Source: Candidatus Omnitrophota bacterium
GTDB lineage: Bacteria; Omnitrophota; Omnitrophia; Omnitrophales; Aquincolibacteriaceae
Assembly (NCBI GenBank): GCA_041674705.1
Contig: JBAYVF010000006.1
Location: forward strand, 23,241-87,240
Direction: 5' to 3'
DNA: 64,000 nucleotides
Under the pieces are notes generated by a model. The model was given only the letters and a program-made list of their open reading frames with translations, was not told the origin of the DNA and made no database searches. The translations under genes and the position numbers were made by a program. Below, piece by piece: positions 10,181 through 62,053 of this stretch. Within the stretch, counting starts at the first letter, position 1; every line of letters begins with the position of its first letter.

Positions 10181-10208
10181 TTGACATCAGAAGTTTCTTT
10201 GCTATCCT
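10181..10208 (+). promoter_or_regulatory. candidate sigma70-type promoter (TTGACA-16-TATCCT)
   Basis: Perfect -35 with an A/T-rich upstream tract. The -10 coincides with the first bases of the 86-bp repeat copy. Confidence 0.4.
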
Positions 10209-10285
10209 TGTCTCGATTTATTTTCTAAAGGGTGACAAGGATTGCCCCAATTTCAAATTTGTTGAAATTGATAGGTATTGGGACT
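10201..10285 (+). repeat. CCCAAT-family dispersed element, full-length diverged copy
   Basis: ...ggattgccccaatttcaaatttgttgaaattgataggtattgggact is collinear with the copies at 43130-43215 (reverse complement) and 51267-51352. Confidence 0.8.
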
Positions 10286-10494
10286 AGAATTCCTCTCGCC
10301 GAGCAAATTTGAAAAAATTTTCGATAAGAAAAATAAAAGGCCCATGATTTTTAAAGATTTGATTCGCCGGCAGCGGGAAAAAAGAAGCGAGAGTCTTCGC
10401 GTGAGTTCGAAGCCCGGAAAAAAGAAAACGTAATCTTTTAAAGCGTCGATCCATCCCCATACAAAATAAGCTCAATGAAAAAATGGGATGTTCG

Positions 10495-16110: not shown

Positions 16111-16144
16111 CTCGAGGTCCCAAAAATTATAAAACAAATTTTTG

Positions 16145-16230: not shown

Positions 16231-16259
16231 TAGCATTTTTTGATCGGCCGTTCGTTTAG

Positions 16260-16346
16260 GGAGAGGTGGCAGAGTGGTCGAATGCGGCAGTCTCGAAAAC
16301 TGTTAATCGCGCAAGCGGTTCGGGAGTTCGAATCTCCCCCTCTCCG
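16260..16346 (+). tRNA. tRNA-Ser(CGA)
   Basis: Hand-folded cloverleaf: acceptor GGAGAGG/CCTCTCC, anticodon arm GCAGT-CTCGAAA-ACTGT, long variable arm, T-arm GGGAG-TTCGAAT-CTCCC. No encoded CCA. Confidence 0.9.
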
Positions 16347-19891: not shown

Positions 19892-20791
19892 ATGCGAATG
19901 ATTCAAAAAATTTTATTCCTCGTCGAATACGCCATCTTCAGGGCCCTGGCATTTCTTCTCCGTCTCATTCCTCTTCGAATAAGTTACAAAACGGCTGATG
20001 TCTTGGGGGTGTTCGTTGTCCGGATCCTGGGGATTCGGCGTGAGACCATGCTGAAAAATCTTCGCCTGGCATTCGGGAAGGAAAAGGATGAAGCCGAACT
20101 TCTCCGGATCGCCGAGGAGTCGATGGCGAACCTCGGCAAACTCGTTTTCGAATTCATCCGAACACCGGAAGCTTCCGCCTACCCCGAGCGGTATATGGAA
20201 CCGCCAGACGTATCGCCGCTGATGGAAGCTGTGAAGAAAAAAGGCGGTTTTATCGCGATTGTTTCGCATTTCGGAAATTGGGAGTGGTTGGCAATTCCCA
20301 TCCAAAAAGACGGCCTTCATGTGCATGCCGTGGGCCGTCCCCTCAAAAATCCTTATCTTTACCGTTATGTCCGGGAAATTCGCGAAGCGGCGAACCTGAC
20401 CAATATCGAAAAGTCAGGCGCGGTGCGGTCCTCTCTCGAGGTGCTTAAAGAGCGGGGGATTCTGGCGGTGCTGATCGATCAACATGAAAGCCGGGGATCG
20501 ATGTGGGTGAATTTTTTTGGCCGCAAAGCCGCGACGAGCACTTTGCCGGCAATGCTTGCCCTTAAATATGAATATCCGGTGCTTCCCGCGTTCTTTTATC
20601 GCGATGAGAGCGGTTGCTCGAAAATTAAATACGGACCACTTTTCCCCCTGATCCGGACCGGAGATCTTCAAGCTGATTTATTGGCTAATACCCAGCAGTA
20701 TGTAACTAAGATCGAGGAAGAGATCCGAAAACGGCCCGGCGACTGGCTTTGGGCCCATCGGAGATGGCGCGCCCCGGAAGTAAAGGTTTAA
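19892..20791 (+). CDS. lysophospholipid/lipid A biosynthesis acyltransferase (LpxL/HtrB family)
   Basis: N-terminal TM, SHFGNWEW acyltransferase motif, LIDQH block. ATG 19892 is preferred because the track start 19748 lies in a hairpin array. Confidence 0.7.
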   Translation: MRMIQKILFLVEYAIFRALAFLLRLIPLRISYKTADVLGVFVVRILGIRRETMLKNLRLAFGKEKDEAELLRIAEESMANLGKLVFEFIRTPEASAYPERYMEPPDVSPLMEAVKKKGGFIAIVSHFGNWEWLAIPIQKDGLHVHAVGRPLKNPYLYRYVREIREAANLTNIEKSGAVRSSLEVLKERGILAVLIDQHESRGSMWVNFFGRKAATSTLPAMLALKYEYPVLPAFFYRDESGCSKIKYGPLFPLIRTGDLQADLLANTQQYVTKIEEEIRKRPGDWLWAHRRWRAPEVKV

Positions 20792-26700: not shown

Positions 26701-28887
26701 ATTGAATGCGTCCAGAAGGACAGGAATAATCTTGGCTCCAGGCAAAAGGTGACGGTATCTTTCTAAATTTCGAAGGACCGCTTTATTTCCACCTGTCAGC
26801 ATTAATGTGCCTTTAAATTTCCTGGAGGCTAGCACTTCAGGCACGGATGACGGTTCGGAGGATACAAATTCGATCAAAGATCCTTTTTCCGGAAATTGAT
26901 AACGGTCTAAAAGAAGTTGCCAAATCCGCTGGGCAGCCACACGGCGGTCCTTTTCAGGGATCTTTTCGAGCCTTGAATTTAAAGGAACTTCTTGGTCGTC
27001 GCGCGATTCGCTTCGGCGAGACATTACATTTTTTTTAAGGGAAAGATCCTGGGCATGAACTGATCCCATTTCGTCAATACCAGCAGCTTGCCTTCCATTC
27101 GTTTCCTGCATCTCGAAGCGAGTGGTTCGCTCATGATTTAAATCTCGCATTTCAGCTCTTCCAATCACACGATGGAGCGTTCCAAGATCGGCGTTGCGGT
27201 CTGCATACAGAGCATTGGCTACGGCCAAAACCTCCATGCGGCCTTCAGAGCGAGCAAAAATGCGCTCGGCCGGGACCATGGTTGCAGGGGCCAAAGGTTT
27301 TGTGGCAATTGCCCGCTCGAACGGAAAGTCACCGTCTGTCATAAGCTTTTTATAGAACGCTTCGTGACGAGGGCTGGGCTTGGTGATTCGCGGACTGACG
27401 ACGAGGTAACTGATCCCTTTGACTTCGAGGACGCGTTTGATGTTCTCCTTATGGAATCCTCCATATACCAAAATTGCCGGCTCGATGCCGGGCAATTTCG
27501 AACTCGAAGTTCGAAGCTCGAAGTTCGAAGTTTCGGCATTATCTTTGTTCTTTGCGTTTTGCTCTTTTCCCTTTTCAAGAAAATATTTATCCAACATCTC
27601 CGAAAGTGAATTGTCACGCTGATGGGCGATTTCGTAGAATTTAATCGCATCCTTGATGTTTTGCTCCCACATCCGGGAGAGGATAAGCGTCTTTGGCGAC
27701 TGGCTGAAAATAAACTTAGCGAAGGAATCCGTATCAAATGTTTTAAGGCTGTTTTTGACCGCCTCATATTCTTCTTGGGATACTTGAAGGTCGTTCAGAC
27801 GGTCGAGAAGGCTTAGGATTTTGTAATACTCAAGAAGCTGCTTATCTTCCGCCTTATGCAAGTAAGTTTCCGCGACCGCTTGCTCAAGTTTAATAAGCTC
27901 GCCGAAGATTTCACGGGCATCAATGTGTTTGGCTTTTTCGATGACAGCCGGATCATTCGAGCGAATGGCTTCAAGAATAAAGCTGAAAAGACCGTCAGCG
28001 TGGAGCGCAGAGCGTTTAACGCTTAGCTTTTTGTCGTTTCTGTCCCCTCTACGCTCTACGCTATCCGCTAGTGAAAATGTCCTTCCAAGATAAGTAAAAA
28101 GGTCGAGCTTCTTGGCATCGAACTGTTCCTTGATCTTGAGCCATTCCTTGAGCGCTTTTGGAAACCGGGCATCGGCAAGTGACTTTAATTCCTTTTCGAG
28201 CGCCTTGAGATCTTTGGTGATGACGTCTTTCTTTGCCGCAGAGAGACGGTATTGTCCGATGTTTTCTTTGTGGAGCTTTAGGGAATCAGCGCCAACGAGG
28301 TTGAAATCCTTTGTCCGGTTAATGTGGGCGTATTCCGCACCGCCTACGCGAAGATGGTCCATCAGGAAGTAAGAGACCTTTTCTTTGATCGTGAGGTCTT
28401 TGATGAACCCGAAATAGTTGTCCGTAGGCACCGGGCCTTCATAGCCCTCCTCGAAGACTGTCTTAATGCCGTCATGCGCGACTAGGTGGTTGATGATCTT
28501 GGCGATATTTTCCTGAGCTTCGAGCGAGTCATGGGCGTCTTGCAGAAAGACTATGGTCTTTCTGCCGGATATCGGATGAAGGATGGAGGATGGCGCCAAA
28601 CCTTTGGTTTTCAGTTCTTCGCCATCCGCCATCCGCTGCCCGCCATCCGGGGCAAAATAGACCTCGTCTATTTTGCCAAGTTCGGGAGGGATCCGGATCT
28701 TTACATCACGGACCAGGCGAGAAAGATCCTTGGATGGATCCCCTCCCTGAACATTGGCATTGACTGGTTGGGCGAATGCAGGGGGCACATAGTTGAGAAG
28801 GCCTGTAAACAGAAAAAGCGCCGCTGTGATAATGGCGACGCCTCTTTTGAATGGGTTTCTCCCGAAGGGAGTATTTTGTATTCTCAT
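20788..28887 (-). CDS. giant multidomain protein (2,699 aa): signal/anchor, unknown N-terminal region, SelO-like, methyltransferase-like, radical SAM, unknown C-terminal modules
   Basis: Single uninterrupted ORF. The motifs are quoted in the domain sub-features and findings. The stop overlaps the lpxL-like stop region by 4 nt (convergent genes). Confidence 0.85.
   Translation of the reverse strand: [2699 protein letters not shown]
22500..23190 (-). other. radical SAM core region of giant ORF (approx. aa 1900-2130)
   Basis: [19 protein letters not shown] (CxxxCxxC at 23131-23154), [29 protein letters not shown]. Confidence 0.7.
23730..24390 (-). other. class-I SAM methyltransferase-like Rossmann region of giant ORF (approx. 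aa 1500-1720)
   Basis: [14 protein letters not shown] (motif I-like), GTVYVLEP (acidic end of beta2), [11 protein letters not shown] (motif IV-like). Confidence 0.45.
25000..26400 (-). other. SelO/YdiU-like pseudokinase (AMPylase-fold) region of giant ORF (approx. aa 830-1295)
   Basis: [22 protein letters not shown] aligns with E. coli YdiU [42 protein letters not shown] aligns with [42 protein letters not shown] aligns with [21 protein letters not shown]. Confidence 0.6.
27485..27539. repeat. palindromic word-repeat (CGAAGTT words) in frame inside giant ORF
   Basis: atgccgggcaatttcgaactcgaagttcgaagctcgaagttcgaagtttcggcat. Encodes ..[18 protein letters not shown].. Confidence 0.65.
27998..28062. 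repeat. palindromic word-repeat (CTACGC words) in frame inside giant ORF
   Basis: gcgtggagcgcagagcg - 27 nt - cctctacgctctacgct (14/17 complementary by hand). Encodes ..[21 protein letters not shown].. Confidence 0.55.
28565..28650. repeat. GGATGG-family palindromic element in frame inside giant ORF
   Basis: ccggatatcggatgaaggatggaggatggcg - cctttggtttt.. - cgccatccgccatccgctgcccgccatccgg. Encodes ..[29 protein letters not shown].. Confidence 0.7.
28771..28887 (-). other. signal-peptide-like / N-terminal anchor segment of giant ORF (aa 1-39)
   Basis: [16 protein letters not shown] (basic), [15 protein letters not shown] (hydrophobic), then [10 protein letters not shown] (AxA-type site). Confidence 0.6.
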
Positions 28888-32862: not shown

Positions 32863-32899
32863 GTATTTCGACAAAGAAATTTTCTTTGAACGCCAGGGG

Positions 32900-33349
32900 A
32901 TGACTCCTATGCAAGGAAAACGGACCGAACGCGTGGCATCCCTCCTTCAAATGGAATTGGGCACGCTTATTCTGGAAAGGATCAAAGATCCGCGTCTGGG
33001 TTTTGTGACCGTCATGCATGTCAAGATCACCCCGGACCTCAAGTCTGCCGTAGTGTTCATCAGCGTGATGGGGGATAAGAAGAAAAAAGAAGAAACGCTC
33101 AAGGTCCTCGAGCGCGCGGCGGGGTTCCTTCAGCACGAGGTGGGTCTGGCGATCCAGATGCGTTACACGCCGAAGCTTCAATTTGAGTTGGACGACTCTC
33201 TCGACAAGGATTTTGAAATAGGCCAGGTTATTCACAAGATCGAAGAAAAGGACAAGCCCAATTCTCCATCAGAAAATTCAAAGGTTAATTGGACTAGCCC
33301 TGGCGACCTTCTATCAGAAAAAAATCAAAGCCAGGACAAGGCCGCTTAA
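32900..33349 (+). CDS. rbfA: ribosome-binding factor A
   Basis: KRTERVASLLQMELGTLILERIKDPRLGFVTV...V.I.PDLK.A.V..S. The start could be ATG 32900 or 32909. The C-terminal 30 aa come from the repeat element. Confidence 0.85.
   Translation: MTPMQGKRTERVASLLQMELGTLILERIKDPRLGFVTVMHVKITPDLKSAVVFISVMGDKKKKEETLKVLERAAGFLQHEVGLAIQMRYTPKLQFELDDSLDKDFEIGQVIHKIEEKDKPNSPSENSKVNWTSPGDLLSEKNQSQDKAA
33251..33340 (+). repeat. 90-nt CCCAAT-family element translated in frame at the rbfA 3' end
   Basis: 75/90 nt identical (hand alignment, no gaps) to 39090-39179 in ftsK. Encodes DKPNSPSENSKVNWTSPGDLLSEKNQSQDK. Confidence 0.85.
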
Positions 33350-34089
33350 TGGACGTGAACTTTATCGACGGCGTTCTCTTGGTCGACAAGCCCGAGAACT
33401 GGACTTCCCACGATGTCTGCGCGTTCGTGCGCCGGCGCTTCGGGATTAAAAAAGTCGGGCATGCCGGAACCCTCGATCCTCTTGCCACAGGGCTTTTGGT
33501 GCTCCTGCTTGGCAAAGCGACCAAAAACTCCATGCAGTTAAGCGCTTGCGATAAGGAATATTTCGGTGCGTTGGAGCTGGGCGTTCAAACCGATTCTCAT
33601 GATCGTCACGGAAAAGTTACCGCCGAAGCGCCCTGGGAGCCTATCACGCTCGAGATGATCCGCGCCAAGGCCGCTCAGCAGTTTACCGGCGACATCGTTC
33701 AGGTGCCGCCCATGGTTTCTGCCCTGAAACACGAAGGAACGCGCCTTTACAAGCTCGCGCGCCAGGGCAAGACTGTGGAACGCGAGGGGCGGCCGGTCAC
33801 AGTACATGAATTCCGTTTTGACAAAAAAGACGGAAAGTTCGTAGAATTCCTGGCCTACGTCTCGAAAGGCACCTATGTTCGCACGCTCGTGAACGATCTC
33901 GGCGAGGCTCTGGGTTGTTTCGCGACAATGGCGCGCTTGCGCCGGCTCCGTAGCGGTTCGTTCAGGTTGGAACAGAGCGTTACGATCGAGGATATGAAGA
34001 ATTTCACTCCAGCCCAACTTCGTGAAAAAGTGATCCCCTTAAGCGCCACACACCTCCATGCAGATCATACCGGACCTTCAAAAGTATAA
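33349..34089 (+). CDS. truB: tRNA pseudouridine(55) synthase
   Basis: GHAGTLDPLATGLLVLLLG catalytic Asp block. TAATG overlap with rbfA. Confidence 0.9.
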   Translation: MDVNFIDGVLLVDKPENWTSHDVCAFVRRRFGIKKVGHAGTLDPLATGLLVLLLGKATKNSMQLSACDKEYFGALELGVQTDSHDRHGKVTAEAPWEPITLEMIRAKAAQQFTGDIVQVPPMVSALKHEGTRLYKLARQGKTVEREGRPVTVHEFRFDKKDGKFVEFLAYVSKGTYVRTLVNDLGEALGCFATMARLRRLRSGSFRLEQSVTIEDMKNFTPAQLREKVIPLSATHLHADHTGPSKV

Positions 34090-35080
34090 GGGCCGTTCGT
34101 CCAGACCCATTGTTCTCGCGCTTGGGAACTTTGACGGCTTTCATCTCGGCCATCAGAAGCTTCTGCGGTATGTCGTTAGCCAAGCGAAAAAAGAACATGC
34201 GCTTGCCGCAGTTCTAACCTTTCCTGAGCATCCGCATAGCATTCTTCATCCTGACCGTAAACCCATGATGCTCATGAGCCTGGAGCAGAAACTTTTTTAT
34301 CTGGCCGAAGCCGGGATCGACCTTTGTTTTTTGCAATCCTTTACCCCGGCGTTCTCAAAAATGACGCCGCGGGATTTTGCGGAAAAAGTTCTCGTAAAAA
34401 AGCTTCACATCCGCGAGATCTGCATGGGACACGACGCTCATTTTGGTCGCGGCCGGAAAGGGGATACGGGGCTCATGAAGGAGCTCGCTAAGACGAACGG
34501 ATTTCTTTTCAGGAAAATGAAGCCCGTGATGTCGGGAGGAAAACCCGTCTCGAGTTCCCGTGTTCGCGAACTTCTTATGAAAGGCGAGATCGAGCGAGCC
34601 GGGAAATGTCTCGGCCGGCCTTTCAGCATGTTCGGCAAGGTGATCCAAGGAAAAGGCCACGGGCTTCATCTCGGGTTCCCGACGGCTAATCTCGAAGTTC
34701 ATTCCGAGATTCTTTTGCCCCTGGGCGTCTATGTGGCTTCGGGACGTTTTTTGTCCCGCCCCCCTTCTTGCTTTCGCAAGAAAGCAGGGGGGCACGCTTT
34801 AAAATCAGCGTGGCTTCCGGGAGTCGCGAATTTCGGGAAACGGCCGACTTATCCCAAAGCAGAAACGCCACGGCCGGTCCTGGAACTGCACCTCCTGGAT
34901 TTCAAAGGGAAAGTTTACGGTCAAATGATGGAGATCGCCCTGCATCGGTTCCTTCGACCGGAGAAGAAATTTCCCGCCGAAAAGGCCCTTAAAGTACAAA
35001 TTCAGCAAGATGTTCAGGCCGCAAGGCGTTATTACAGATCAAGAAATCGCTTCAGAAATACGGGAGAGGCGAAATTTTGA
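34058..35080 (+). CDS. ribF: bifunctional riboflavin kinase / FMN adenylyltransferase
   Basis: LGNFDGFHLGHQ, SSSRVRE, GFPTANL, NFGKRPT, E.HLLDF. Confidence 0.9.
   Translation: MQIIPDLQKYKGRSSRPIVLALGNFDGFHLGHQKLLRYVVSQAKKEHALAAVLTFPEHPHSILHPDRKPMMLMSLEQKLFYLAEAGIDLCFLQSFTPAFSKMTPRDFAEKVLVKKLHIREICMGHDAHFGRGRKGDTGLMKELAKTNGFLFRKMKPVMSGGKPVSSSRVRELLMKGEIERAGKCLGRPFSMFGKVIQGKGHGLHLGFPTANLEVHSEILLPLGVYVASGRFLSRPPSCFRKKAGGHALKSAWLPGVANFGKRPTYPKAETPRPVLELHLLDFKGKVYGQMMEIALHRFLRPEKKFPAEKALKVQIQQDVQAARRYYRSRNRFRNTGEAKF
34758..34793. repeat. 36-nt GC-clamped hairpin in frame inside ribF
   Basis: gccccccttcttgc-tttc-gcaagaaagcaggggggc. Encodes an extra loop (..RPPSCFRKKAGGH..) between GVYVASG and the NFGKRPT block. 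Confidence 0.6.
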
Positions 35081-35094
35081 AAATCATTAAAATC

Positions 35095-35124
35095 TGGACA
35101 AGGCGAGGGTTGCTGGGGTATACT
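35095..35124 (+). promoter_or_regulatory. weak candidate promoter for rpsO (TGGACA-18-TATACT)
   Basis: Hexamer match only. Confidence 0.25.
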
Positions 35125-35188
35125 CCCGAGCCTTCAACGACTATAAAAAAGACGTAACTCAAACAAAGACGAGGAGTTAGAAGAAAAA

Positions 35189-35458
35189 ATGGCATTAGCA
35201 AAGACGAAGAAAAAAGAGATCATTTCGAAATACAAGATCAGCAAGAACGATTCAGGGTCCGATGAGGTGCAGATCGCCCTCCTTACCGAGCGCATCAACG
35301 GTCTTTCCGGACATTTTGGAAAAAATGTCAAGGATCACCATTCGCGTTACGGGCTTATCAAGATGGTCAGCCGCCGTAAAAGGCTTCTGAAGCATCTCCA
35401 AAGAGAGACCCCTGAAAAATATCAGCAGATCATCGCTCGCCTTGATCTGAGGAAGTAA
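35189..35458 (+). CDS. rpsO: 30S ribosomal protein S15
   Basis: 89 aa. GSDEVQIALLTERINGLSGHF..N.KDHHSRYGLIKMVSRRKRLLKHL. Confidence 0.95.
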   Translation: MALAKTKKKEIISKYKISKNDSGSDEVQIALLTERINGLSGHFGKNVKDHHSRYGLIKMVSRRKRLLKHLQRETPEKYQQIIARLDLRK

Positions 35459-35538
35459 TTTCCTCGTTTCAGATGGAAAATCAGCCTGTCCTTATCTTGA
35501 AGAAGTCCCAACCTCACAATCGAAAGGTGTAACCTCAC

Positions 35539-37722
35539 ATGACAAACGTCTCAAAAGTTTCTACTCAGATCGGGGGCCGCGAAGTGTCCCTGGAAACCGG
35601 GCGCATGGCCAAGCAGGCTCATGGCGCCGTGCTCGCCCAATGCGGCGGGACCGTGATCCTGGCAGCCGTGGTCGCGGCAGCGGATAAGAAAGAGATCCGC
35701 GATTTTTTCCCGCTCACCGTGGATTACCGTGAACGCACGTACGCCGCCGGGAAGATCCCGGGAGGTTTTTTCAAGCGGGAAGGGCGTCCCTCTGAAAAGG
35801 AGATCCTGACCTCGCGCCTGATCGACCGGCCCATCCGTCCGCTTTTCCCCGAAGATTATCTTAACGAAGTGCAAGTCTCAGTCACGGTGCTGTCGATCGA
35901 CGGCGAGAACATGACCGAGATTTTCGCCATGAACGCGGCTTCGGCGGCGCTCATGATCTCGGACATTCCTTACACGACCGCTCTCGGCGCCGCGCGCGTC
36001 GGGCTCGTGGACGGACAATTCATCGTGAATCCCACGCACCAGGAGCTTGAAAAGAGCGCCCTGGACCTCGTGGTCGCCGGGACGCTTGAAAAGATCGTCA
36101 TGATCGAAGCGGGCGCCCAGGAGATCTCGGAAGAGCAAATGCTTGAGGCCCTCAAAGTCGGGCATGAAGCGGTCAAGCAAGCCGTGAAGTTGCAGCTCGA
36201 CCTTGTGAAAAAGGCCGGCAAGACCAAGAAAGCCGTGAAGCCGCTTCAATTCCAGGCGGGTATGGAAAAAAAGATCGAGGCCGCGATCGGCGGGGAGTTC
36301 GAAAAAATGTTCTCTCAGTCAGGCAAGGAAGCGCAGGAAGCGTTCCTGAAAGGTCTTTATGAAAAGGCCCTTGCGCAGTGCGACACCAAGGCTGAAGATT
36401 TTGATGAGGCCCTCGTGAAGATCGCGTTTGCGCGGCTCGAACACGAAAAGATCCGTGATTTTGTGCTTTCGACCGGCAAACGTCCGGACGGACGCGGCGA
36501 ACGCGATATCCGTCAGATCACCTGCGAGATCGGCATTTTGCCGAGGACGCACGGATCTTCACTTTTTACCCGCGGTCAGACCCAGAGTTTGAGTGTGGTT
36601 ACGCTCGGCACGGGCGATGACGAACAGACGATCGATGCTCTGGAGAAAAATTACTCCAGGCGTTTTATGCTCCATTATAATTTTCCGCATTACAGCGTGG
36701 GCGAGGTCGGCCCCAATCGCGGAACGGGTCGTCGTGAGATCGGTCACGGGGCGCTTGCTTCACGCGCTTTGGAACCTATTCTCCCTTCCCAGGAAGATTT
36801 TCCGTATACCATTCGTCTCGTTTCCGAGATCATGGAATCCAATGGGTCGAGTTCCATGGCCACGGTTTGCGGCGGAACGCTCGCGCTTATGGATGCCGGG
36901 GTGCCTGTCAAGGCGCCGGTGGCTGGCATCGCGATCGGGATGGTGTCTGACAAGAGCCGCTGGAAAGTTTTGACCGATATCGCCGGGATCGAAGACCATT
37001 TGGGCGATATGGACTTCAAGGCCGCGGGAACCCGCGAAGGCCTTACGGCGCTTCAGATGGATATGAAGATCGACGGTATTACCGAAGCCCAGCTCAAGGA
37101 AGCGTTCGATCACGCCAAACAGGCGCGCTTCAAGATCCTGGACAAGATCGCGGCTTGCATCAAAACTCCGAAGGAACTTTCGGAATTTGCGCCGCGCATT
37201 ACGACCCTCAAGATCGATCCGGAAAAGATCGGCATGTTGATCGGTCCCGGAGGCAAGAATATCCGCAAGATCGTCGAAGAAACCGGCGCCAAGATCGACA
37301 TCGAAGATGACGGCCGTGTTTTCATTGCCGCGATGAGCAGTGAGTCCTCTGCTGCCGCGATCGCGCGCGTTCAGGCCGTGACCGAAGACGCCGAGATCGG
37401 CAAGATCTATGACAGCACGGTCCAGAAGCTCATGGTGTTTGGCGCGTTCTGCGAAGTGTTGCCCGGGAAAGACGGGCTTTGCCACGTTTCCGAGATCACC
37501 GAAGGATTTGTAAAAAGCGCCGGGGATTATCTCCGCGTGGGGGACAAGGTAAAAGTGAAGGTCCTCAGTGTCGATGAACGGGGCAAGATCAGCTTGAGCA
37601 TCAAGCAAGCGATGACCGAACCCCTTCCGATACTTCCTGAAGATCAAAGGACGGTCGTGGAAGCAGCTCCTCCGAGACGTGATCGCGATGATCGCGGTGG
37701 AAGAGGCCGGCCTCGCCGCTAA
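35539..37722 (+). CDS. pnp: polyribonucleotide nucleotidyltransferase (PNPase)
   Basis: Two RNase PH domains (FPLTVDYRE.TYAAGKIPGGFFKREGR; RPDGR...IR), then KH (GPGGKNIRKI) and S1. 727 aa. Confidence 0.95.
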   Translation: MTNVSKVSTQIGGREVSLETGRMAKQAHGAVLAQCGGTVILAAVVAAADKKEIRDFFPLTVDYRERTYAAGKIPGGFFKREGRPSEKEILTSRLIDRPIRPLFPEDYLNEVQVSVTVLSIDGENMTEIFAMNAASAALMISDIPYTTALGAARVGLVDGQFIVNPTHQELEKSALDLVVAGTLEKIVMIEAGAQEISEEQMLEALKVGHEAVKQAVKLQLDLVKKAGKTKKAVKPLQFQAGMEKKIEAAIGGEFEKMFSQSGKEAQEAFLKGLYEKALAQCDTKAEDFDEALVKIAFARLEHEKIRDFVLSTGKRPDGRGERDIRQITCEIGILPRTHGSSLFTRGQTQSLSVVTLGTGDDEQTIDALEKNYSRRFMLHYNFPHYSVGEVGPNRGTGRREIGHGALASRALEPILPSQEDFPYTIRLVSEIMESNGSSSMATVCGGTLALMDAGVPVKAPVAGIAIGMVSDKSRWKVLTDIAGIEDHLGDMDFKAAGTREGLTALQMDMKIDGITEAQLKEAFDHAKQARFKILDKIAACIKTPKELSEFAPRITTLKIDPEKIGMLIGPGGKNIRKIVEETGAKIDIEDDGRVFIAAMSSESSAAAIARVQAVTEDAEIGKIYDSTVQKLMVFGAFCEVLPGKDGLCHVSEITEGFVKSAGDYLRVGDKVKVKVLSVDERGKISLSIKQAMTEPLPILPEDQRTVVEAAPPRRDRDDRGGRGRPRR

Positions 37723-37734
37723 GCAGCGTTTTAA

Positions 37735-37787
37735 AAAAGGGGGCAGGCTACTTTTCCAATAAAGTGGCCTGCCCCTTTTAATTTTTT
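37735..37787 (+). terminator. intrinsic terminator after pnp
   Basis: aaaagggggcaggc-tacttttccaataaagtg-gcctgcccctttt followed by a T-rich tract. Confidence 0.7.
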
Positions 37788-37796
37788 GAGGATGCT

Positions 37797-38246
37797 ATGA
37801 AAGAAATTCAAGTCCTGATCAAGACCTTACCGCATTTCGAAGGCTTGCCTCTTCCGCAGTATCAGACCGAAGGTGCGAGCGGCATCGATCTCCTGGCGGC
37901 CTGCCAAGAACCTGTCACGATCCAGCCGGGGGACCGGGTTTTAGTTCCCACGGGTATCATTATTGCTCTTCCGAGGCATCTCGAGGCTCAGATCCGTCCA
38001 CGAAGCGGCCTTGCGATCAAACACGGCATTACGCTCCTCAATACCCCCGGGACGATCGACTCCGATTATCGCGGCGAGATCCAGGTCATTTTGATCAATC
38101 ACGCGAAAGAAGCTTTTACCGTAACGCGCGGTATGCGGATCGCCCAAATGGTCCTTGCCGAAGTGGTTAAGGCGAAGCTCGAGGTAGTCGATAATCTTGA
38201 TGGAACGCGCCGGGGTGCCGGCGGTTTCGGCCATACCGGCCACTGA
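37797..38246 (+). CDS. dut: dUTP diphosphatase
   Basis: GASGIDL, PRSGLA, GTIDSDYRGE, and C-terminal RGAGGFGHTG. Confidence 0.95.
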   Translation: MKEIQVLIKTLPHFEGLPLPQYQTEGASGIDLLAACQEPVTIQPGDRVLVPTGIIIALPRHLEAQIRPRSGLAIKHGITLLNTPGTIDSDYRGEIQVILINHAKEAFTVTRGMRIAQMVLAEVVKAKLEVVDNLDGTRRGAGGFGHTGH

Positions 38247-38354
38247 ACCGTAGCGGACAGCGTTAAGCGCTAAGCGTTCAGGATTGCCAAAAAATAAATC
38301 CGTTCATTATTAATATTCTTTACGCTGTTCGCTTAACACCTATCTCTAGGATTT

Positions 38355-40853
38355 ATGAAAAAAGAACGAGTCAACGAGATCTGGGGCGTTTTTTTCCTTT
38401 TGCTGGGGCTCTTCACTTTTGCGAGCCTTTTTTTCTATCGCGCTGAGGATATCGCGTTCTATTCTTCACATCCCACTTTCCCCGTCGCCAATTACGCCGG
38501 AGTTTTTGGCGCCTATGTTGCTTTCGGGCTTTTTCTTGTTTTTGGCGTGAGCGCCTTCGTCATCCCCTTTGTTTTTCTTCTTTGGGCAGAATGTTTTTTT
38601 CTTCAAAAAGTTCCCGAGCGGAAACTCTTCAAATTTATCGGGCTGGCCATTGCGCTTCTCTCGATCGCAACGATCGTGGCGATCACCGTCGGGCCCCAGC
38701 AACGCTTCGTCTATGGCGGCGCGTTCGGGTACGTGGCAGGCAACCATCTTCTGCGCTATTTCGGACGCTTGGGAAGCTATATTCTGGCCGGTTCTGCACT
38801 TTTACTCTCGCTTCTTCTCGCGACAGATTTTCTTCTCTATCCCTTATTTCGCGCGATCCTCGGGAAACTCCAAGCGCTCTTCTCAGGCGTTGCCGAACGG
38901 ATCTCTCGCGAGCCTCAAAAAAATGGAAATGCGGCTCTTTTGAAAAAGGAGCAGGAGCGACAAGCGAGGGATTTGAAACAGCGGGAGAGGGAAAAGGAAA
39001 AAGCGAAAGAAAAAGAAAAATCGGCGCCGCGAATGCCGGACATGCCGCTCAAGATCAAGACCTATCAACCGACCGCGGGCATGGCGGATGATAAGCCCAA
39101 TTCTCAATCAAAAAATTCAAAGGGTAATTGGACTAATCTTGGCAACCTTCAGTCAGAAGAAAATAGAGGCCAGGATAAGACGAAGGCTGAAAAGAAGCCC
39201 AAAGAAGAAGCGAAAGAGGCTGTGAAGAAACAGGTGCCGCAGCTTGCGGCTCCAAAAACGGAAGTTTCGAGCAAGGAAAAGCCATCAGAAAAGGGTTCCA
39301 GCGGCGAGGCCACCTTTAAAGGCGTGATCGGTTCCCAGATCAAGGCTGATGCGAATTATCAATTTCCCTCCGTAGATCTCTTGAAAAGACCGAAGGAAGA
39401 TGTGGTGGGTGGAGGCGATGATCTCGAAGCCAATTCCAAAGCCATCGAAGCGACGCTTGCCGAATTCGAGATCGAGGTCAAGGTGGTCGAGGTAGAGCAG
39501 GGGCCGAAGATCACGCTTTATGAGATCCTTCCGGCACCGGGCGTTCGCGCCAATTCGATCGCGGCCTATGAAGATGATATCGCGATGGCGCTTAAGGCCA
39601 CCAGCATCCGGATGATCATTCCGATCCCCGGGAAACAGACGATCGGGATCGAAGTCCCGAATTCTGTATCCCGGCCGATCCTGGTACGCGAGATGATCGA
39701 GAATCCTGATTTTCGTTCTCAGAAATGCATGCTGCCTTTGATCCTCGGGAAAGACACGAGCGGAAGGCCGATGATCGCGGACCTGGCGGCTATGCCCCAC
39801 ATTCTGATCGCCGGAACCACGGGAAGCGGCAAAACTGTTTGCATTAATTCCATTATCGCCGGGTTTCTTTATCACTGTACGCCTTCTCAGTTAAAACTTG
39901 TTATGGTGGATCCGAAAATGGTCGAGCTCGCCGTTTACAACAAGATCCCGCACATGCTTTCGCCCGTGGTGACGGATGTGCGCAAGGCGTCCAACACGCT
40001 CAACTGGGTCGTGATGGAAATGGAAAAACGGTACCGTCTTTTTGCTACGGTGGGTGTAAGAAATATTGTTGGGTTTAACACCCGCGAACTTTCCGAAGAA
40101 GGCGTGAAACAGGTTGAGGCGGCGGGGGATTCCGAAAATGTAATTCCGGCCTCGATCCCTTACATTGTGGTCATCATCGACGAGCTTGCGGATCTCATGC
40201 TGGTGGCGCAGGATAAGGTTGAGACCGCCATCACACGCCTTGCCCAGCTTTCCCGCGCGGTCGGTATCCACTTGATCCTTGCGACGCAGCGACCCTCAGT
40301 GGATGTCATCACGGGCGTTATCAAAGCGAATTTTCCGGCCCGTGTTGCGTTCAAAGTAGCCTCCGTCGTAGACTCCCGAACGATTCTCGATAACAAAGGG
40401 GCTGATAAGTTACTGGGCCGCGGGGATATGCTTTTTGTGCAACCTGGAAGCGATAATATGATCCGGGGACAAGCGCCGCTCATTGAAGACGAAGAGATCA
40501 ATCGCATCGTGGCTTTTACTGCGACTCAGGGAAAACCGGAATACCATTCCGAGATCCAGTCCGTGCAGAATAGCTCCATGCCGGGAGGCGCCGGAGAAAA
40601 AGATGATATGTTCGAAGAAGCGAAGCGCATTGTTCTCACCACGCGTCAGGCTTCGACCTCCTATTTACAGCGACGCTTGAGACTCGGGTATTCGCGGGCG
40701 GCCCGTGTTGTGGATCAACTGGAGGCTGCAGGCGTGATCGGCCCACAAGACGGAGCGAAGCCTCGCGAGATCCTTTTGCCGAACCCGACCGGAGACTACG
40801 CTGAAGCCACTCCCGTTGATGCTGGCGCCGAGGACGAAGACGATAACGTCTAG
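38355..40853 (+). CDS. ftsK: DNA translocase FtsK
   Basis: Four N-terminal TM helices, a low-complexity linker, motor domain GTTGSGKTV, IIDELADL, ATQRPSVDVITG, and gamma wHTH YLQRRLRLGYSRAARVVDQLE. Confidence 0.95.
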   Translation: MKKERVNEIWGVFFLLLGLFTFASLFFYRAEDIAFYSSHPTFPVANYAGVFGAYVAFGLFLVFGVSAFVIPFVFLLWAECFFLQKVPERKLFKFIGLAIALLSIATIVAITVGPQQRFVYGGAFGYVAGNHLLRYFGRLGSYILAGSALLLSLLLATDFLLYPLFRAILGKLQALFSGVAERISREPQKNGNAALLKKEQERQARDLKQREREKEKAKEKEKSAPRMPDMPLKIKTYQPTAGMADDKPNSQSKNSKGNWTNLGNLQSEENRGQDKTKAEKKPKEEAKEAVKKQVPQLAAPKTEVSSKEKPSEKGSSGEATFKGVIGSQIKADANYQFPSVDLLKRPKEDVVGGGDDLEANSKAIEATLAEFEIEVKVVEVEQGPKITLYEILPAPGVRANSIAAYEDDIAMALKATSIRMIIPIPGKQTIGIEVPNSVSRPILVREMIENPDFRSQKCMLPLILGKDTSGRPMIADLAAMPHILIAGTTGSGKTVCINSIIAGFLYHCTPSQLKLVMVDPKMVELAVYNKIPHMLSPVVTDVRKASNTLNWVVMEMEKRYRLFATVGVRNIVGFNTRELSEEGVKQVEAAGDSENVIPASIPYIVVIIDELADLMLVAQDKVETAITRLAQLSRAVGIHLILATQRPSVDVITGVIKANFPARVAFKVASVVDSRTILDNKGADKLLGRGDMLFVQPGSDNMIRGQAPLIEDEEINRIVAFTATQGKPEYHSEIQSVQNSSMPGGAGEKDDMFEEAKRIVLTTRQASTSYLQRRLRLGYSRAARVVDQLEAAGVIGPQDGAKPREILLPNPTGDYAEATPVDAGAEDEDDNV
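39090..39179 (+). repeat. 90-nt CCCAAT-family element translated in frame in the ftsK linker
   Basis: Encodes DKPNSQSKNSKGNWTNLGNLQSEENRGQDK. 20/30 aa and 75/90 nt identical to the rbfA copy, in the same reading frame of the element. Confidence 0.85.
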
Positions 40854-40897: not shown

Positions 40898-41533
40898 GTG
40901 ATACAAACTCCCGGAAACGAAAAAAAAGTCCTGCTTCATTCGTGTTGCGCTCCGTGTTCCTGCTCGATCATTCAGCGTATGGTGGAGAACGGCAGCGAGC
41001 CGACGGTTTATTTCTACAATCCCAATATTTACCCCAAAGAAGAATATGAGCATCGCAAACGCGAAGTCATCCGCTTTATCAAAAAAAATGGCATTCCTTT
41101 TGTCGATGCGGATTACGAGATCGATGGATGGCTTGAAGCTATAGAAGGCCATGAGAAAGACGCGGAGCGGGGAAAGCGCTGCACGATCTGCTTTGAGATG
41201 CGTCTCGGGAAGGCCGCAGCTTATGCCGCAGGCAATGGCTTTAAAGTGTTTGCGACCAGCCTCGGCATTTCCCGCTGGAAAGATCTCGCACAAGTGAATC
41301 GCGCGGGAAAACACGCCGCCTCTTTATTTTCAGGGCTTGTCTATTGGGATCACAACTGGAGGCTCTCAGGCGGGCAGGAACAGATGGAAAGGATCGCGAA
41401 AGAAGAGAATTTTTACCGTCAAAATTATTGCGGCTGCCTTTATTCCCTCGAGGAATCTGCGAAGCGGTCCCAATACTCATCAATTTCCATGAAGGGGAAA
41501 TTGGGGCAGCCCAAGTCGCCATCAATGAAATAA
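40898..41533 (+). CDS. queH: epoxyqueuosine reductase QueH (DUF208)
   Basis: LLHSCCAPCS, C.IC...R, and YCGCLYS Cys pattern. Confidence 0.8.
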   Translation: MIQTPGNEKKVLLHSCCAPCSCSIIQRMVENGSEPTVYFYNPNIYPKEEYEHRKREVIRFIKKNGIPFVDADYEIDGWLEAIEGHEKDAERGKRCTICFEMRLGKAAAYAAGNGFKVFATSLGISRWKDLAQVNRAGKHAASLFSGLVYWDHNWRLSGGQEQMERIAKEENFYRQNYCGCLYSLEESAKRSQYSSISMKGKLGQPKSPSMK

Positions 41534-41573
41534 AAATATAGACTTGGGCGGAATCTTGCCAAAAAATCCGCGA

Positions 41574-41651
41574 CCCTGGCTTTTATTTTTAATTTATGGT
41601 AGCCAGGGCCGCCCCAATCTCAGCTACGCTTCGATTGATTGGTATTGGGAC
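41574..41651. repeat. composite hairpins related to CCCAAT family, between the convergent queH and DUF190 genes
   Basis: ccctggct-...-agccaggg followed by ccccaatctcagctacgcttcgattgattggtattgggac. Confidence 0.55.
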
Positions 41652-41653
41652 GG

Positions 41654-42526: not shown

Positions 42527-43129
42527 TTATTTTTTTCCGCCAAAAGGCTTGGCGGATCCGCCTCCGGCGGACTTACCGACGGTGAAGGCCTGGCCGAGGA
42601 ACTTGCCGGTCGCATAATAAGCGCTTGTGCCCGGATCGAACATGAAAGCTTTCATTTTTTCCGGATCGGGAAAGCCTTTGGAGTTGAGCGCCGACTCTTC
42701 CACCTTGATATCCTTGATCTCGCCGATGAATTGCGTGTGAATGCCGAGCTTGTGCGTTTCTTTCAGCGTGCATTCCAGGACGAAAGGAAATTCCTTGATG
42801 TAGGGTGCGTCGACGAGATCGCTTTTGACGGGCGTCAACCCCGTAGCCTTAAATTTATCTTCGGTCTTCCCGGAAACGATCCCGAAATAATCCGCTTCTT
42901 TCATATGTTTTTCGGAAGGAATATTTACGGTGAAGGCTTTTTTCGCCAGAATGTTCTCATAGGTCTTGCGATGATCGCGTATCGAGACCGTCACGCAAGG
43001 CGGTTCGGAGCAGGCGATGCCGCCCCAGGCCACGTTCATGGCGTTGGGAGCGCCTTTCGCGTCATAAGAACAGACGATCAGGACAGGAGTCGGAAAGAGA
43101 AGCGTTTTGGTACCGAGCGATTTTTTCAT
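42527..43129 (-). CDS. flavin reductase-like FMN-binding domain protein
   Basis: LLFPTPVLIVCSYDAKGAPNAMNVAWGG split-barrel pattern. ATG 43129 is preferred, because the track extension MKGIGT is read from the repeat element. Confidence 0.75.
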   Translation of the reverse strand: MKKSLGTKTLLFPTPVLIVCSYDAKGAPNAMNVAWGGIACSEPPCVTVSIRDHRKTYENILAKKAFTVNIPSEKHMKEADYFGIVSGKTEDKFKATGLTPVKSDLVDAPYIKEFPFVLECTLKETHKLGIHTQFIGEIKDIKVEESALNSKGFPDPEKMKAFMFDPGTSAYYATGKFLGQAFTVGKSAGGGSAKPFGGKK

Positions 43130-43215
43130 AGTCCCAATACCTTTCAATTTTTGCGAAGCAGAAATTGGGGCAATCCCAACTGCCCTTTATGTAAAGAAAT
43201 CAAAAGTTGGGATAG
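43130..43215 (-). repeat. CCCAAT-family 86-bp element, copy abutting the flavin reductase start codon
   Basis: Its reverse complement is 77/86 identical (hand alignment) to 51267-51352. It ends ...gaaaggtattgggact directly before the ATG. Confidence 0.9.
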
Positions 43216-43231
43216 ACGCCACCAAAAAAGT

Positions 43232-43978
43232 TTAACGGCCTTCGATATTGAGCACGTGCGTTTTCTTTTTCAGGAAACGGAAAACAAGATAGATCACAAG
43301 GGAGGTCCCAAAAAAGATCCACCAAAAAGGCGCGATCTTATGGTCGGGTTTCGTAAAAAGGTCCGCGGCGATCCCGAGCACGGTGAGGGCAGAGATCATG
43401 CCAAATTGTGTCGAATGCTCCCGGCGCAACACGGTCTTCCACGCGTACGGGAGTTCCGGTTTTTGAAACCCCGAGAATTTTGGAATAAAGACGGGCGTTT
43501 TCAAGGACCATTCCACGAATGTCTGCCCAAATTTCTGGCGCAGGAATTCTTCTTCCGTGAAAATGATGCGCTCGTAGAAGATCCAGAAAATAGCAATTCC
43601 TGCGAGCGTGAACCACCAAACCTGGATAAAGAGTAGAAGTCCAAGGCAAATGAGGAAATTTCCAAGATAAAGAGGGTTGCGGACCACCGAATACAAACCC
43701 TTGGTGTTCAGACTTTCCGCGACCTGGGTTTGCGTGTTGCGTCCCGAAGTTCCTCTTGGAACATAACCGGCCACGAGGCAGCGCACGATGAACCCCGAAA
43801 GGGAAATGAGGATGCAGATCGCTTTCCAGAGGCTGCCGGAAAAACCGCTGAAGAATGGATGAGAATATTGGGGATCCAGGAGCGCTGCGACGACCAAGGG
43901 GCCTACCAGGAGAGGAAGGTAACTTCGGTGACGGAAGAGGAACGCGCCTTGTTTTTCATAAGTTTCTTTGAGAGCCAT
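43232..43978 (-). CDS. isoprenylcysteine carboxyl methyltransferase (ICMT/PEMT-like) family membrane protein
   Basis: Multi-TM. LNTKGLYSVVRNPLYLGNFLI...ERIIFTEEEFL block. Confidence 0.65.
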   Translation of the reverse strand: MALKETYEKQGAFLFRHRSYLPLLVGPLVVAALLDPQYSHPFFSGFSGSLWKAICILISLSGFIVRCLVAGYVPRGTSGRNTQTQVAESLNTKGLYSVVRNPLYLGNFLICLGLLLFIQVWWFTLAGIAIFWIFYERIIFTEEEFLRQKFGQTFVEWSLKTPVFIPKFSGFQKPELPYAWKTVLRREHSTQFGMISALTVLGIAADLFTKPDHKIAPFWWIFFGTSLVIYLVFRFLKKKTHVLNIEGR

Positions 43979-51266: not shown

Positions 51267-51352
51267 TTATCCCAACTTTAAATTTCTTTGCATAAAGGAT
51301 AGTTGAGATTGCCCCAATTTCTACTTCGTAAAAATTGAAAGGTATTGGGACT
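51267..51352 (+). repeat. CCCAAT-family 86-bp element, copy abutting the 51353 start codon
   Basis: Inverted partner of 43130-43215. It ends ...gaaaggtattgggact directly before the ATG. Confidence 0.9.
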
Positions 51353-51550
51353 ATGAAAAATTATGTCTGGAAGTATCTTCTTCCCGGGATTGCCCTCATA
51401 GCATGCGCGTTCTGGGTCGGGACGCTGCCCAACATGGTTTTTTCTTTCCTCGGTTTTCTCTCGTTCTTTTTGGCCGGCGTAGCCCTTATCATAGAAGGAC
51501 GGAAACAATGCTTTTCCTGTAAAGGGAAAGGCACGGAGAACGGCGAGTGA
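51353..51550 (+). CDS. small membrane protein (65 aa, 2 TM, C-terminal CFSC)
   Basis: ATG 51353 is preferred, because the track extension MKGIGT is read from the repeat. No recognisable family. Confidence 0.45.
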   Translation: MKNYVWKYLLPGIALIACAFWVGTLPNMVFSFLGFLSFFLAGVALIIEGRKQCFSCKGKGTENGE

Positions 51551-52565: not shown

Positions 52566-52596
52566 CCTGACTTTTTATTTCTTCAAGGAAGTCAGG
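52566..52596. terminator. hairpin between convergent genes (52148-52540 and atpC)
   Basis: cctgactt-tttatttcttcaagg-aagtcagg. Confidence 0.45.
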
Positions 52597-52613
52597 ACAA
52601 CCACGACTTTCCA

Positions 52614-61817: not shown

Positions 61818-61827
61818 CATCTCGTTC

Positions 61828-61866
61828 GTCCCAATTTGCAATGAAATTTAAAATGAAAATTGGGAC
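61828..61866. repeat. CCCAAT-type hairpin directly after tuf
   Basis: gtcccaattt-gcaatgaaatttaaaatga-aaattgggac. Confidence 0.55.
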
Positions 61867-62053
61867 AGCACTGATTTCCGATTAGAAACTAATAGAAAAT
61901 CAGGCGGCCACAAATCCTAGCATTTTTTGGCGAAGCCCTGCAGGCTGTAAGACGTTTATTTTCGCCGTAAGAGGTCTTACAAGCCGAAATCATTATTTGA
62001 AAGCCGTGTTTTTTCCGCGGTTTTTTTAAGACAAAGGAAAAGGTTTTATTTCG

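Follow-up and report, generated by a model that had tools for sequence, protein, structure and literature searches.

The question raised by this locus is why two unrelated genes of a Candidatus Omnitrophota bacterium, those encoding RbfA and FtsK, carry closely similar stretches of DNA that are translated in the same frame. The DNA studied, referred to here as the window, is a 64,000-nt stretch of the forward strand of contig JBAYVF010000006.1 (GCA_041674705.1; positions 23,241 to 87,240), and all coordinates are those of the window, with position 1 as its first letter. The original prediction called rbfA essential; "housekeeping" is the better term. The host genes and the copies that they contain are as follows.

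32897..33349, + strand: host gene rbfA (Pfam RBFA at aa 9-111 of 150)
33251..33340, + strand: genic-type copy in the rbfA tail, adding 28 codons, two codons before the stop
33251-33256: left repeat GACAAG of the rbfA copy, of which CAAG is the duplicated target
33257-33297: hairpin module 1 of the rbfA copy, stem CCAATT/AATTGG, ending in GACTAG
33298-33340: hairpin module 2 of the rbfA copy, stem CCTGGC/GCCAGG, ending in GACAAG
38355..40853, + strand: host gene ftsK (Pfam FtsK_4TM, FtsK_alpha, FtsK_SpoIIIE, and FtsK_gamma domains)
39090..39179, + strand: genic-type copy in the FtsK linker, adding 28 codons
39090-39095: left repeat GATAAG of the ftsK copy
39096-39136: module 1 of the ftsK copy
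39137-39179: module 2 of the ftsK copy, ending in GATAAG

As originally proposed, positions 33251 to 33340 and 39090 to 39179 align without gaps and are identical at 75 of 90 nt, and each copy begins and ends with the same hexamer (GACAAG in rbfA and GATAAG in ftsK). The first half matches better (42/47) than the second (33/43), and the flanking 30 nt, identical at only 7/30 and 5/30 positions, are unrelated. A degenerate pattern for the 40-nt core matched twice in the window and never in 100 shuffles. The rbfA copy is a chimera that matches one subtype at 44/47 positions and the other at 40/43. Both copies lie within long open reading frames in a common element frame, and their translations are exactly the peptides that had been quoted; stop codons occur in all three antisense frames and in one sense frame. 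The insert occupies approximately aa 119 to 148 of RbfA, past the RBFA domain, in a gene whose stop codon overlaps the ATG of truB, and approximately aa 246 to 275 of FtsK, between the 4TM region (4 to 164) and the alpha domain (337 to 436) as placed by Pfam. The proposal that such inserts are tolerated in surface loops or tails is supported: one window copy is located in a tail and the other in a linker, and the peptides that they encode are strongly hydrophilic (GRAVY of -1.7 and -2.1). A single-sequence structure model gave the RbfA tail low confidence, with pLDDT values below 50 from residue 94 onward. An example of an element-encoded peptide, as a predicted translation, is PNSQSKNSKGNWTNLGNLQSEENR.

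Orthologues from related genomes contain the corresponding empty sites. The 28- to 30-aa segment is absent from the RbfA tail in 12 relatives, all Candidatus Omnitrophota genomes in which the protein ends in EEKDK followed by AG, AV, or TS and the stop codon, and from FtsK in 15 of 17 relatives, which show a clean gap of exactly 28 residues. Empty sites carry the flanking motif once and look precise. Occupied sites are variable, and the rbfA site in different genomes holds differing subtypes, single copies, tandems, or chimeras. At locus L009 only half of the element is present, at L002 and L061 it is repeated in tandem, and at L010 and L011 an intergenic-type copy is nested inside a genic-type copy. 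The GT9 orthologues of L065 and L079 are each empty where the other has an insertion. Flanks at the ftsK site are GATAAG on both sides in the window and GACAAG on both sides in L010, L011, and L067, and empty sites with either allele (GATAAG or GACAAG) were found. On the shallow, poorly resolved tree, this pattern of presence and absence does not separate repeated gain from precise loss.

The window contains at least eight copies, genic and intergenic types together. Those outside rbfA and ftsK, with one weaker unit, are as follows.

10202..10286, - strand: intergenic-type copy, with mnmE on one side and the class II ribonucleotide reductase gene on the other
41465..41551, + strand: intergenic-type copy overlapping the queH 3' end
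41571..41653, - strand: intergenic-type copy, tail to tail with the 41465 copy and directly 3' of the DUF190 gene stop
43129..43215, + strand: intergenic-type copy in the orientation of the genic copies, adjoining a flavin-reductase-like gene at its minus-strand ATG (43129-43127)
51268..51353, - strand: intergenic-type copy adjoining a 65-aa membrane-like ORF at its ATG (51353)
52566..52605, - strand: solo second-hairpin-like unit between convergent ORFs (weak match)
61826..61903, + strand: diverged copy directly 3' of the tuf stop codon, with both hairpins recognisable

The 41465 copy, read in a different frame, gives queH its last ~21 codons and its stop codon. The 43130 copy is also spanned by a plus-strand ORF (42731-43636), but this ORF was taken to be spurious, since the Flavin_Reduct protein of this region is encoded on the minus strand. 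An iterated profile found seven window copies. With a profile built from intergenic copies only, the two genic copies ranked highest among the non-seed window matches (E of 9e-4 and 2e-3, collinear), and an eighth copy was recovered. Judged by their sequences, the intergenic CCCAAT copies and the genic copies, which have the same architecture, are one family. Profile, architecture, and nesting bear out the predicted link to the copies at 10201, 43130, and 51267, but it is weaker than the "clearly" with which it had been put. Across 882 kb of sequence there were 145 profile matches (E up to 1).

Genic insertion extends well beyond the window. A metagenome scan yielded 83 matches in 46 loci, and every match within an ORF of at least 150 aa was sense-oriented and shared a single codon register, the frame that reads CCC-AAT as Pro-Asn/His. 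Loci L034 to L079 come from anaerobic-digester and groundwater samples. Together with peptide-profile searches, the scan placed genic copies at ~24 sites in ~20 protein families, all in one frame and one orientation and with host domains intact; carriers besides RbfA and FtsK, identified by Pfam, include UvrA, KsgA, PFK, AroE, histidine kinases, GT9, and TrpE/PabB. The same insertions recur in many independent assemblies. A 58-column "dimer" peptide profile returned only four proteins, and a representative-protein search with the two window peptides returned eight at an E value of ≤0.001, one of which (P0006) is a false-positive repeat protein; these numbers are small because clustering at 50% identity hides most carriers. 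The viral contigs scanned gave no match to the element. Rfam 15 at the gathering threshold identified only four tRNAs in the whole window, with no element match, and at an E value of ≤10 nothing better than E = 2 was obtained for three copies. Promoter and terminator scans around four copies gave no useful signal above shuffles.

The element adds 84 nt (28 codons), which is the modal added length in both subfamilies. The comparison with Rickettsia palindromic elements (RPEs) implied a single long palindrome; instead, the unit is dimeric, and its two hairpins, A (CCCAAT...ATTGG) and B, lie between short duplicated flanks. The stems are variable but complementary, and the loops are conserved and A-rich. 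Among 22 copies, helix B was 91% paired, with seven of nine pairs changed on both sides, and its covariation score of 0.56 compares with 0.19 or less when the partners were slid and was reached by none of 500 shuffles. RNA folding gave a divided result: intergenic copies fell below shuffles (z of -2.8 to -5.2, with one copy at -1.65), whereas the two in-frame window copies folded no better than shuffled sequence (z of -0.7 and -0.4).

Identical 4-mers flank both sides of 30 of the 39 genic-type copies (shuffled mean, 13.7; maximum, 23), and identical 3-mers flank 18 of the 29 intergenic-type copies (shuffled mean, 8.7; maximum, 14); both counts lie above all 2,000 shuffled pairings. The duplicated motif is CAAG, CATG, or TAAG (about CAWG) in the genic type and TAG in the intergenic type, and the flanking motifs across copies are CAAG, CATG, TAAG, TAG, TGG, and CGG. 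The target in rbfA, AGGACAAG, is the same as the element's own last 8 nt. No terminal inverted repeats were found in most copies beyond TCC/GGA, the ends being (T)CCCAAT... and ...GGA and each hairpin being internal to one half. Ends without inverted repeats are unusual among elements that make target duplications.

The window stretches are very probably, to judge from these sequence patterns, copies of a nonautonomous, hairpin-built, target-duplicating mobile element family of one Candidatus Omnitrophota lineage. The original reading of an RPE-like mobile element is supported by the empty sites, the further copies, and the one-frame genic insertions, and the family is real and previously undescribed; the literature searched, including the main Omnitrophota genomics paper, does not mention such repeats. 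An enzyme supplied in trans would recognise the hairpins and insert the unit at short targets, either by cutting the target in a staggered manner or by recombining at a short shared core. Insertions within genes survive only on the sense strand and in one frame, where 84 nt become 28 hydrophilic residues in tails, linkers, or loops. Other copies persist by docking on start codons, with the ATG regenerated from the duplication and, depending on orientation, with the element's own stop and GAGG or with an AAAGG box, and further copies supply a new C-terminal tail. Loss or reshuffling through the short direct repeats would give rise to half elements, tandems, chimeras, and nested composites. The 882 kb of sequence yielded neither a transposase nor any longer, autonomous relative, and a search there for left and right element halves 0.2 to 6 kb apart gave only one weak pair that is probably spurious.

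Some copies dock exactly on start codons, and these variants carry TGA-GAGG-N7-ATG or AAAGG-N10-ATG. Specific to the uppS site is an 87-nt variant that brings its own stop codon and a GAGG; it occurs in nine loci, from a sample collected with a 21-nt pattern that lies within the element. The stem of the first hairpin at the purA-uppS site is CCAATC/GATTGG or CCCATC/GATGGG, and pairing is kept in five of six species. Orthologous copies diverge by 4 to 11%, against 26 to 48% at neighbouring third codon positions (dS of 0.6 to 1.3), and inserted copies diverge 4 to 14 times more slowly than adjacent synonymous or third-codon sites; one pairing (L010 18544 with L008 18330) was rejected and left out of this comparison, the L010 copy being the nested one. 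In the ftsK copy, dN and dS are about equal (0.078 and 0.065), and the constraint is therefore on nucleotides and not on the peptide. A fixed selfish copy should not be much more conserved than nearby neutral sites, which speaks against a pure passenger.

The slow divergence, the equal dN and dS, the stem changes that keep pairing, and the initiation motifs of the docked variants could all be understood if the element were a structured DNA or RNA module useful to the host (for instance, a pair of hairpins bound by protein, the leader of an mRNA, or a cassette for initiating translation), maintained by purifying selection with mobility secondary. We regard this as possible but on balance improbable, given that half of the relatives lack the element at the same sites, that the genic copies fold weakly, that neither Rfam matches nor promoter or terminator signals above shuffles were obtained, and that the uppS-site sample was ascertained from within the element. 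G:T and A:C mismatches (11 versus 9) show no strand bias, and so nothing points to RNA of one orientation. Usefulness of this kind would extend the mobile-element explanation and not exclude it.

The low divergence and common sites might alternatively reflect recurrent site-specific reinsertion, or gene conversion between copies, and not old orthologous insertions. The ftsK flanks, which differ between the window and L010, L011, and L067 yet agree on both sides of each copy and have empty counterparts of either allele, point in this direction, as do the differing contents of the rbfA site among genomes and the identity of the rbfA target to the end of the element. In contrast, the restriction of the 87-nt variant to the uppS site in nine loci fits orthology, and we consider reinsertion or conversion a minority explanation of comparable standing to host usefulness.

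The mobile-element explanation also leaves a choice of enzyme. Two subterminal hairpins with covarying stems, the lack of terminal inverted repeats, insertion that is always 3' of a short motif resembling the element's 3' end, and empty sites that look precise are consistent with a hairpin-recognising single-strand HUH enzyme (IS200/IS605 TnpA or RAYT) or a site-specific recombinase acting on a short core, in place of a DDE transposase with staggered cuts. However, the flanking tetramer differs among copies of a single subtype, with matching changes on the two sides (CAAG, CATG, and TAAG). Target duplication or a shared core accounts for this directly, and cleavage at a fixed, guide-defined site does not. 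The element has no REP signature of the GTAG type, and no gene for such an enzyme was seen in the 882 kb. We consider mobilisation by an HUH enzyme or recombinase unlikely. The reading of the 30-aa segments as an ancestral low-complexity protein feature, a chance match, or an assembly artefact has a negligible probability and is refuted: only the hydrophilic, low-complexity look of the peptide favors it, against the DNA-level match between unrelated flanks (0 of 100 shuffles), the empty sites in relatives, the noncoding copies, and the recurrence of the same insertions in independent assemblies. Readings as attC-like, CRISPR-like, or intein-like sequences were dropped on anatomy alone.

RPEs are short palindromic repeats found in intergenic DNA and also, with striking frequency, within unrelated housekeeping genes, where they are read in frame and encode a conserved extra peptide; in-frame gene insertion reaches an unusually high frequency in them (PMC10969869). 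The Omnitrophota element resembles RPEs in that the survivors are in one frame and in otherwise intact conserved proteins, here ~20 unrelated families. It differs in size (84 nt versus about 100 to 150 bp) and in consisting of two separate hairpins with covarying stems and not one long palindrome. Further differences are the clear 3- to 4-nt duplication at its flanks, the variants docked on start codons, the nested composites, and the stronger conservation of copies in place than of synonymous sites. It appears to be an analogue of RPEs and not a member of that family; the phylum differs, and a sequence relationship is not expected. Intragenic copies, with occasional in-frame fusions, are also found among bacterial MITEs, namely Coxiella QMITE1, ERIC, large BOX, Anabaena MITEs, and Correia (PMC10969869). 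Like MITEs, the Omnitrophota element is small, has no transposase ORF, is present in many copies (at least eight in 64 kb), duplicates its target, and is polymorphic among relatives; MITEs, however, are defined by terminal inverted repeats matching an insertion sequence, and the Omnitrophota element shares only TCC/GGA. With REP/BIME and REPIN sequences, which are associated with RAYT transposases, it has in common short structured hairpin units that occur singly, paired, or clustered and are conserved in place. REPs are extragenic, 20 to 40 nt long, have a GTAG-type head, and are paired in inverted orientation, whereas the 84-nt Omnitrophota unit has two unlike hairpins in direct order, many intragenic copies, a flanking duplication, and no GTAG head. 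Palindrome-associated elements derived from IS200/IS605 likewise have subterminal hairpins in place of inverted repeats and insert beside a short motif; that family is not known to leave a target duplication, whereas the Omnitrophota flanking motif varies and is duplicated.

For 25 years, widespread in-frame insertion of selfish repeats has been known mainly as an oddity of Rickettsia; the Omnitrophota family adds a second large-scale case, which is independent of the first and comes from an uncultured phylum unrelated to Rickettsia. It combines several ways of being harmless, through in-frame insertion, start-codon docking, and tail replacement, and offers a tractable system for how proteins tolerate, and perhaps recruit, inserted peptides. 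In Omnitrophota, these inserts of 28 aa will mislead orthology assignment and domain calling and will confuse MAG assembly. That inserted copies evolve far more slowly than neighbouring synonymous sites presents a testable puzzle. We suggest, with considerable doubt, that the element may not be a mere passenger and that, defined by hairpins and having no inverted repeats, it may be moved by an enzyme class new to such elements, with copies kept by the host through nucleotide-level selection. If the host does use them, copies at start codons would serve as portable leader or ribosome-binding cassettes and copies within genes as structured DNA or RNA sites, and the element would be a domesticated, gene-compatible building block and not junk.

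The segments at 33251-33340 in rbfA and 39090-39179 in ftsK, which the original prediction had paired as copies of one repeat translated in frame, align without gaps with 75 of 90 bases identical, and their 30-base flanks are unrelated (7/30 and 5/30 matching). A degenerate 40-nt core derived from the repeat has two matches in the window and none in any of 100 shuffles. Both copies lie inside long open reading frames and share one element frame, encoding the very hydrophilic peptides DKPNSPSENSKVNWTSPGDLLSEKNQSQDK and DKPNSQSKNSKGNWTNLGNLQSEENRGQDK (GRAVY of -1.7 and -2.1), and Pfam confirms the hosts as RbfA and FtsK. In RbfA (150 amino acids; Pfam domain at residues 9 to 111), the insert spans residues ~119 to 148 and ends two codons 5' of the stop codon, which overlaps the start of truB. 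In FtsK, it spans residues ~246 to 275, separating the 4TM region from the alpha domain. When RbfA was modeled by AlphaFold from its sequence alone, the core came out with moderate confidence and everything from residue 94 through the C terminus had pLDDT under 50, which lends weak support to a disordered tail.

An iterated nucleotide profile search of the window recovered seven copies, and a profile built from intergenic copies only added an eighth.

Element copies in the window (iterated profile except the last)
10206-10285, minus strand, element copy
33255-33336, plus strand, genic copy in rbfA
39094-39175, plus strand, genic copy in ftsK
41467-41547 (extent 41465-41551), plus strand, copy at the queH 3' end
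41575-41651, minus strand, element copy
43130-43212 (extent 43129-43215), plus strand, start-docked copy
51270-51352 (extent 51268-51353), minus strand, start-docked copy
61826-61903, plus strand, diverged copy after tuf (intergenic-only profile)

The top nonseed matches of the intergenic-only profile were the two genic copies (E values of 9e-4 and 2e-3, collinear), so the predicted kinship with the intergenic "CCCAAT" elements was right. In orientation, the genic copies agree with the 43130 copy and are opposite to the 10201 and 51267 copies. Elsewhere, the window contains a giant 2,699-residue open reading frame (20788-28887, minus strand) to which Pfam assigns only a radical-SAM domain, spanning residues 1906 to 2024. 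It also contains a 41-nt direct repeat (16140-16180 and 16255-16295; 90% identity) that opens two tRNA-like sequences 115 nt apart, with an Rfam tRNA call at 16260-16346 only.

The unit consists of hairpin A (CCCAAT...ATTGG; inner stem of 9 to 10 bp in intergenic copies) followed by hairpin B, in which the A-rich loop is conserved and the 7- to 9-bp stem varies in sequence. Among the 22 copies compared, pairing in helix B reaches 91%, and both sides have changed in 7 of 9 pairs of helix B and 7 of 10 pairs of helix A. The covariation score was 0.56, compared with at most 0.19 with slid partners, and none of 500 shuffles reached 0.56. Stem mismatches of the G:T and A:C kinds are equally common (11 and 9) and thus leave no mark of one transcribed strand. 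Folded as single-stranded DNA, the five intergenic copies had z scores of -2.8 to -5.2, except for one at -1.65; neither in-frame window copy stood out (-0.7 and -0.4). Insertion lengthens a site by 84 nt in either subtype; one site-specific variant adds 87 nt. Short direct duplications flank each copy. In the genic type they are CAAG/CAAG, CATG/CATG, or TAAG/TAAG; in the intergenic type, TAG/TAG, TGG/TGG, or CGG/CGG. The flanking repeats are identical in 30 of 39 distinct genic and 18 of 29 distinct intergenic copies, above all 2,000 shuffled pairings, with many of the CATG pairs deriving from one locus. The terminal hexamers singled out in the original prediction resolve into the 4-nt duplication plus two bases where the target chances to resemble the element end; at the rbfA target this likeness reaches 8 nt, AGGACAAG.

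Relatives carry the corresponding empty sites. Searching species-representative genomes with the RbfA core yielded 33 loci, 26 of them 73 to 99% identical and with titles nearly all naming Candidatus Omnitrophota. In 12 of these RbfA ends ...IEEKDK(AG/AV/TS...)*, with a single GACAAG, matching the window sequence exactly once the 84 nt are taken out. In FtsK, a clean gap of 28 residues at GM(A/T)DDK|(T/A)K is present in 15 of 17 relatives, the insert being carried in that comparison only by the window and loci L010 and L011. These empty sites show that the segment was inserted and is not ancestral to the proteins. The rbfA site is filled at the same position in L001, in L002 by two tandem copies, and in L010/L011 by a copy that has another nested within it. 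Locus L009 (3751-3800) has the first 41-nt hairpin module alone, with a frameshifted tail and an open reading frame running beyond the usual stop, and L015 and L018 retain decayed remnants.

The further copies that the prediction called for were found, with carriers totaling about 24 sites in about 20 families. Scanning metagenomic sequence for a 21-nt pattern taken from the hairpin-hairpin junction gave 46 loci and 83 profile hits. Hits within open reading frames of at least 150 amino acids were all on the sense strand and in the register reading CCC-AAT as Pro-Asn/His; several are duplicates of one contig, and two are nongenic (the 43130 copy, in a spurious antisense frame, and a copy upstream of uvrA). 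Hosts identified by Pfam include UvrA (three sites), KsgA/RsmA, phosphofructokinase, homoserine dehydrogenase, AroE, a UvrD/AddA-like helicase, a Proton_antipo_M subunit, two HisKA_7TM kinases (insert within HATPase_c just after the N-box), UbiD, PTPS, GT9 (two sites), an acyl-CoA dehydrogenase-like protein, a 4Fe-4S protein, a Zn-ribbon protein, TrpE/PabB, and a DEAD helicase. Two protein searches added aminotransferase IV, a second phosphofructokinase site, small open reading frames, and a carrier resembling, by eye, a helicase fragment. The two kinases are different proteins (L051, residues 649 to 703; L053, residues 367 to 393) with the insert at a homologous position after the N-box helix, as a tandem pair in one of them. 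Genic survivors keep a strict frame and strand. In the window genic copies every antisense frame contains stops, as does one sense frame; a second sense frame is open, yet it is used at no genic site.

The element also rearranges through its direct repeats. Intergenic-type copies are nested at the two TAGs of genic-type copies, forming composites in at least 10 different host genes, and tandem copies occur in rbfA, a kinase, and uppS. By sequence, the window rbfA copy is a chimera of the two subtypes: its first 47 nt match copy 1 of L061 at 44 positions and the window ftsK copy at 42, and its last 43 nt are of the other subtype, matching L001 at 40 of 43. Deletion within an L061-like tandem would produce such a chimera. 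One GT9 heptosyltransferase-like protein has different insert sites in L065 and L079, each empty at the other's site, and 12 host codons are absent beside the L065 insert. Carriers do not form a clade in a neighbor-joining tree of five flanking proteins, and the overall clade is shallow, so repeated gain and precise loss both fit their distribution. The hexamer on both sides of the ftsK copy is GATAAG in the window and GACAAG in L010, L011, and L067, a hint that insertions at this single site may have been independent.

Fixed copies are far more conserved than the surrounding sequence. The ftsK copies of the window and L010 differ at 6 of 84 positions, with dN approximating dS, compared with 14/90 upstream, 27/90 downstream, and a motor-domain dS of 0.74. 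Two unascertained intergenic pairs have elements identical at 64/72 and 48/50 positions against third-position differences of 48% and 37%, respectively. At the uppS site in six species, sampled by a pattern spanning 21 of the 84 element positions, the element differs by 6.3% against a dS of 0.89 (purA plus uppS) and includes a compensated stem-pair switch. Nucleotide-level selection, homogenization, or recurrent reinsertion are possible sources of the slow divergence.

Several copies abut start codons. In reverse orientation, the intergenic-type 43130 and 51352 copies and several in relatives (L007 17671, L008 18330, L010 20271, and L002 19444) end at a downstream ATG (...AAAGGTATTGGGACT|ATG) or at most 1 nt off, with AAAGG 10 nt upstream, an arrangement suggesting that the element may supply the ribosome-binding region. 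The downstream genes are Flavin_Reduct, a 65-residue membrane-like open reading frame, and, by eye, crcB-like and Trm112-like genes. Nine related loci (L040, L050, L055, L056, L063, L064, L068, L075, and L077) have the 87-nt variant between purA and uppS in sense orientation, docked on the uppS ATG in one, two, or four tandem copies; each copy starts with the duplicated ATG and ends in TGA, forming a mini-open reading frame followed by GAGG-N7-ATG. The last ~21 codons and stop of queH (40898-41533, plus strand) come from the 41467 copy in a frame unlike that of the genic copies, the QueH Pfam domain being complete by residue 185. The convergent queH and DUF190 genes are separated by a 120-nt gap with two copies arranged tail to tail (41465-41653), where a scan found no intrinsic-terminator-like site.

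The family is solidly real: a repeated, polymorphic unit of two hairpins bounded by a short duplication. An enzyme supplied in trans may recognize the hairpins and direct insertion to CAWG or TAG targets. Purifying selection would then purge genic insertions except those adding 28 hydrophilic residues in tolerant regions, and slippage between the duplicated tetramers could remove the element. No gene for such an enzyme was found in 882 kb, and neither scanned viral contigs nor Rfam gave a match to the element. Its closest analogue is the Rickettsia palindromic elements (PMC10969869), which it resembles, as predicted, in being a repeat inserted in frame; host, size, and architecture are different. 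The element resembles MITEs in size, copy number, and target duplication but not in its ends, which have only TCC/GGA in common and so lack true terminal inverted repeats. REP/RAYT and IS200/IS605-type elements do not fit on the tested features. Full-text literature searches turned up no account of such repeats in Omnitrophota, nor did a term search of the phylum's main genomics paper. The element bears on the study of mobile DNA and of protein evolution.
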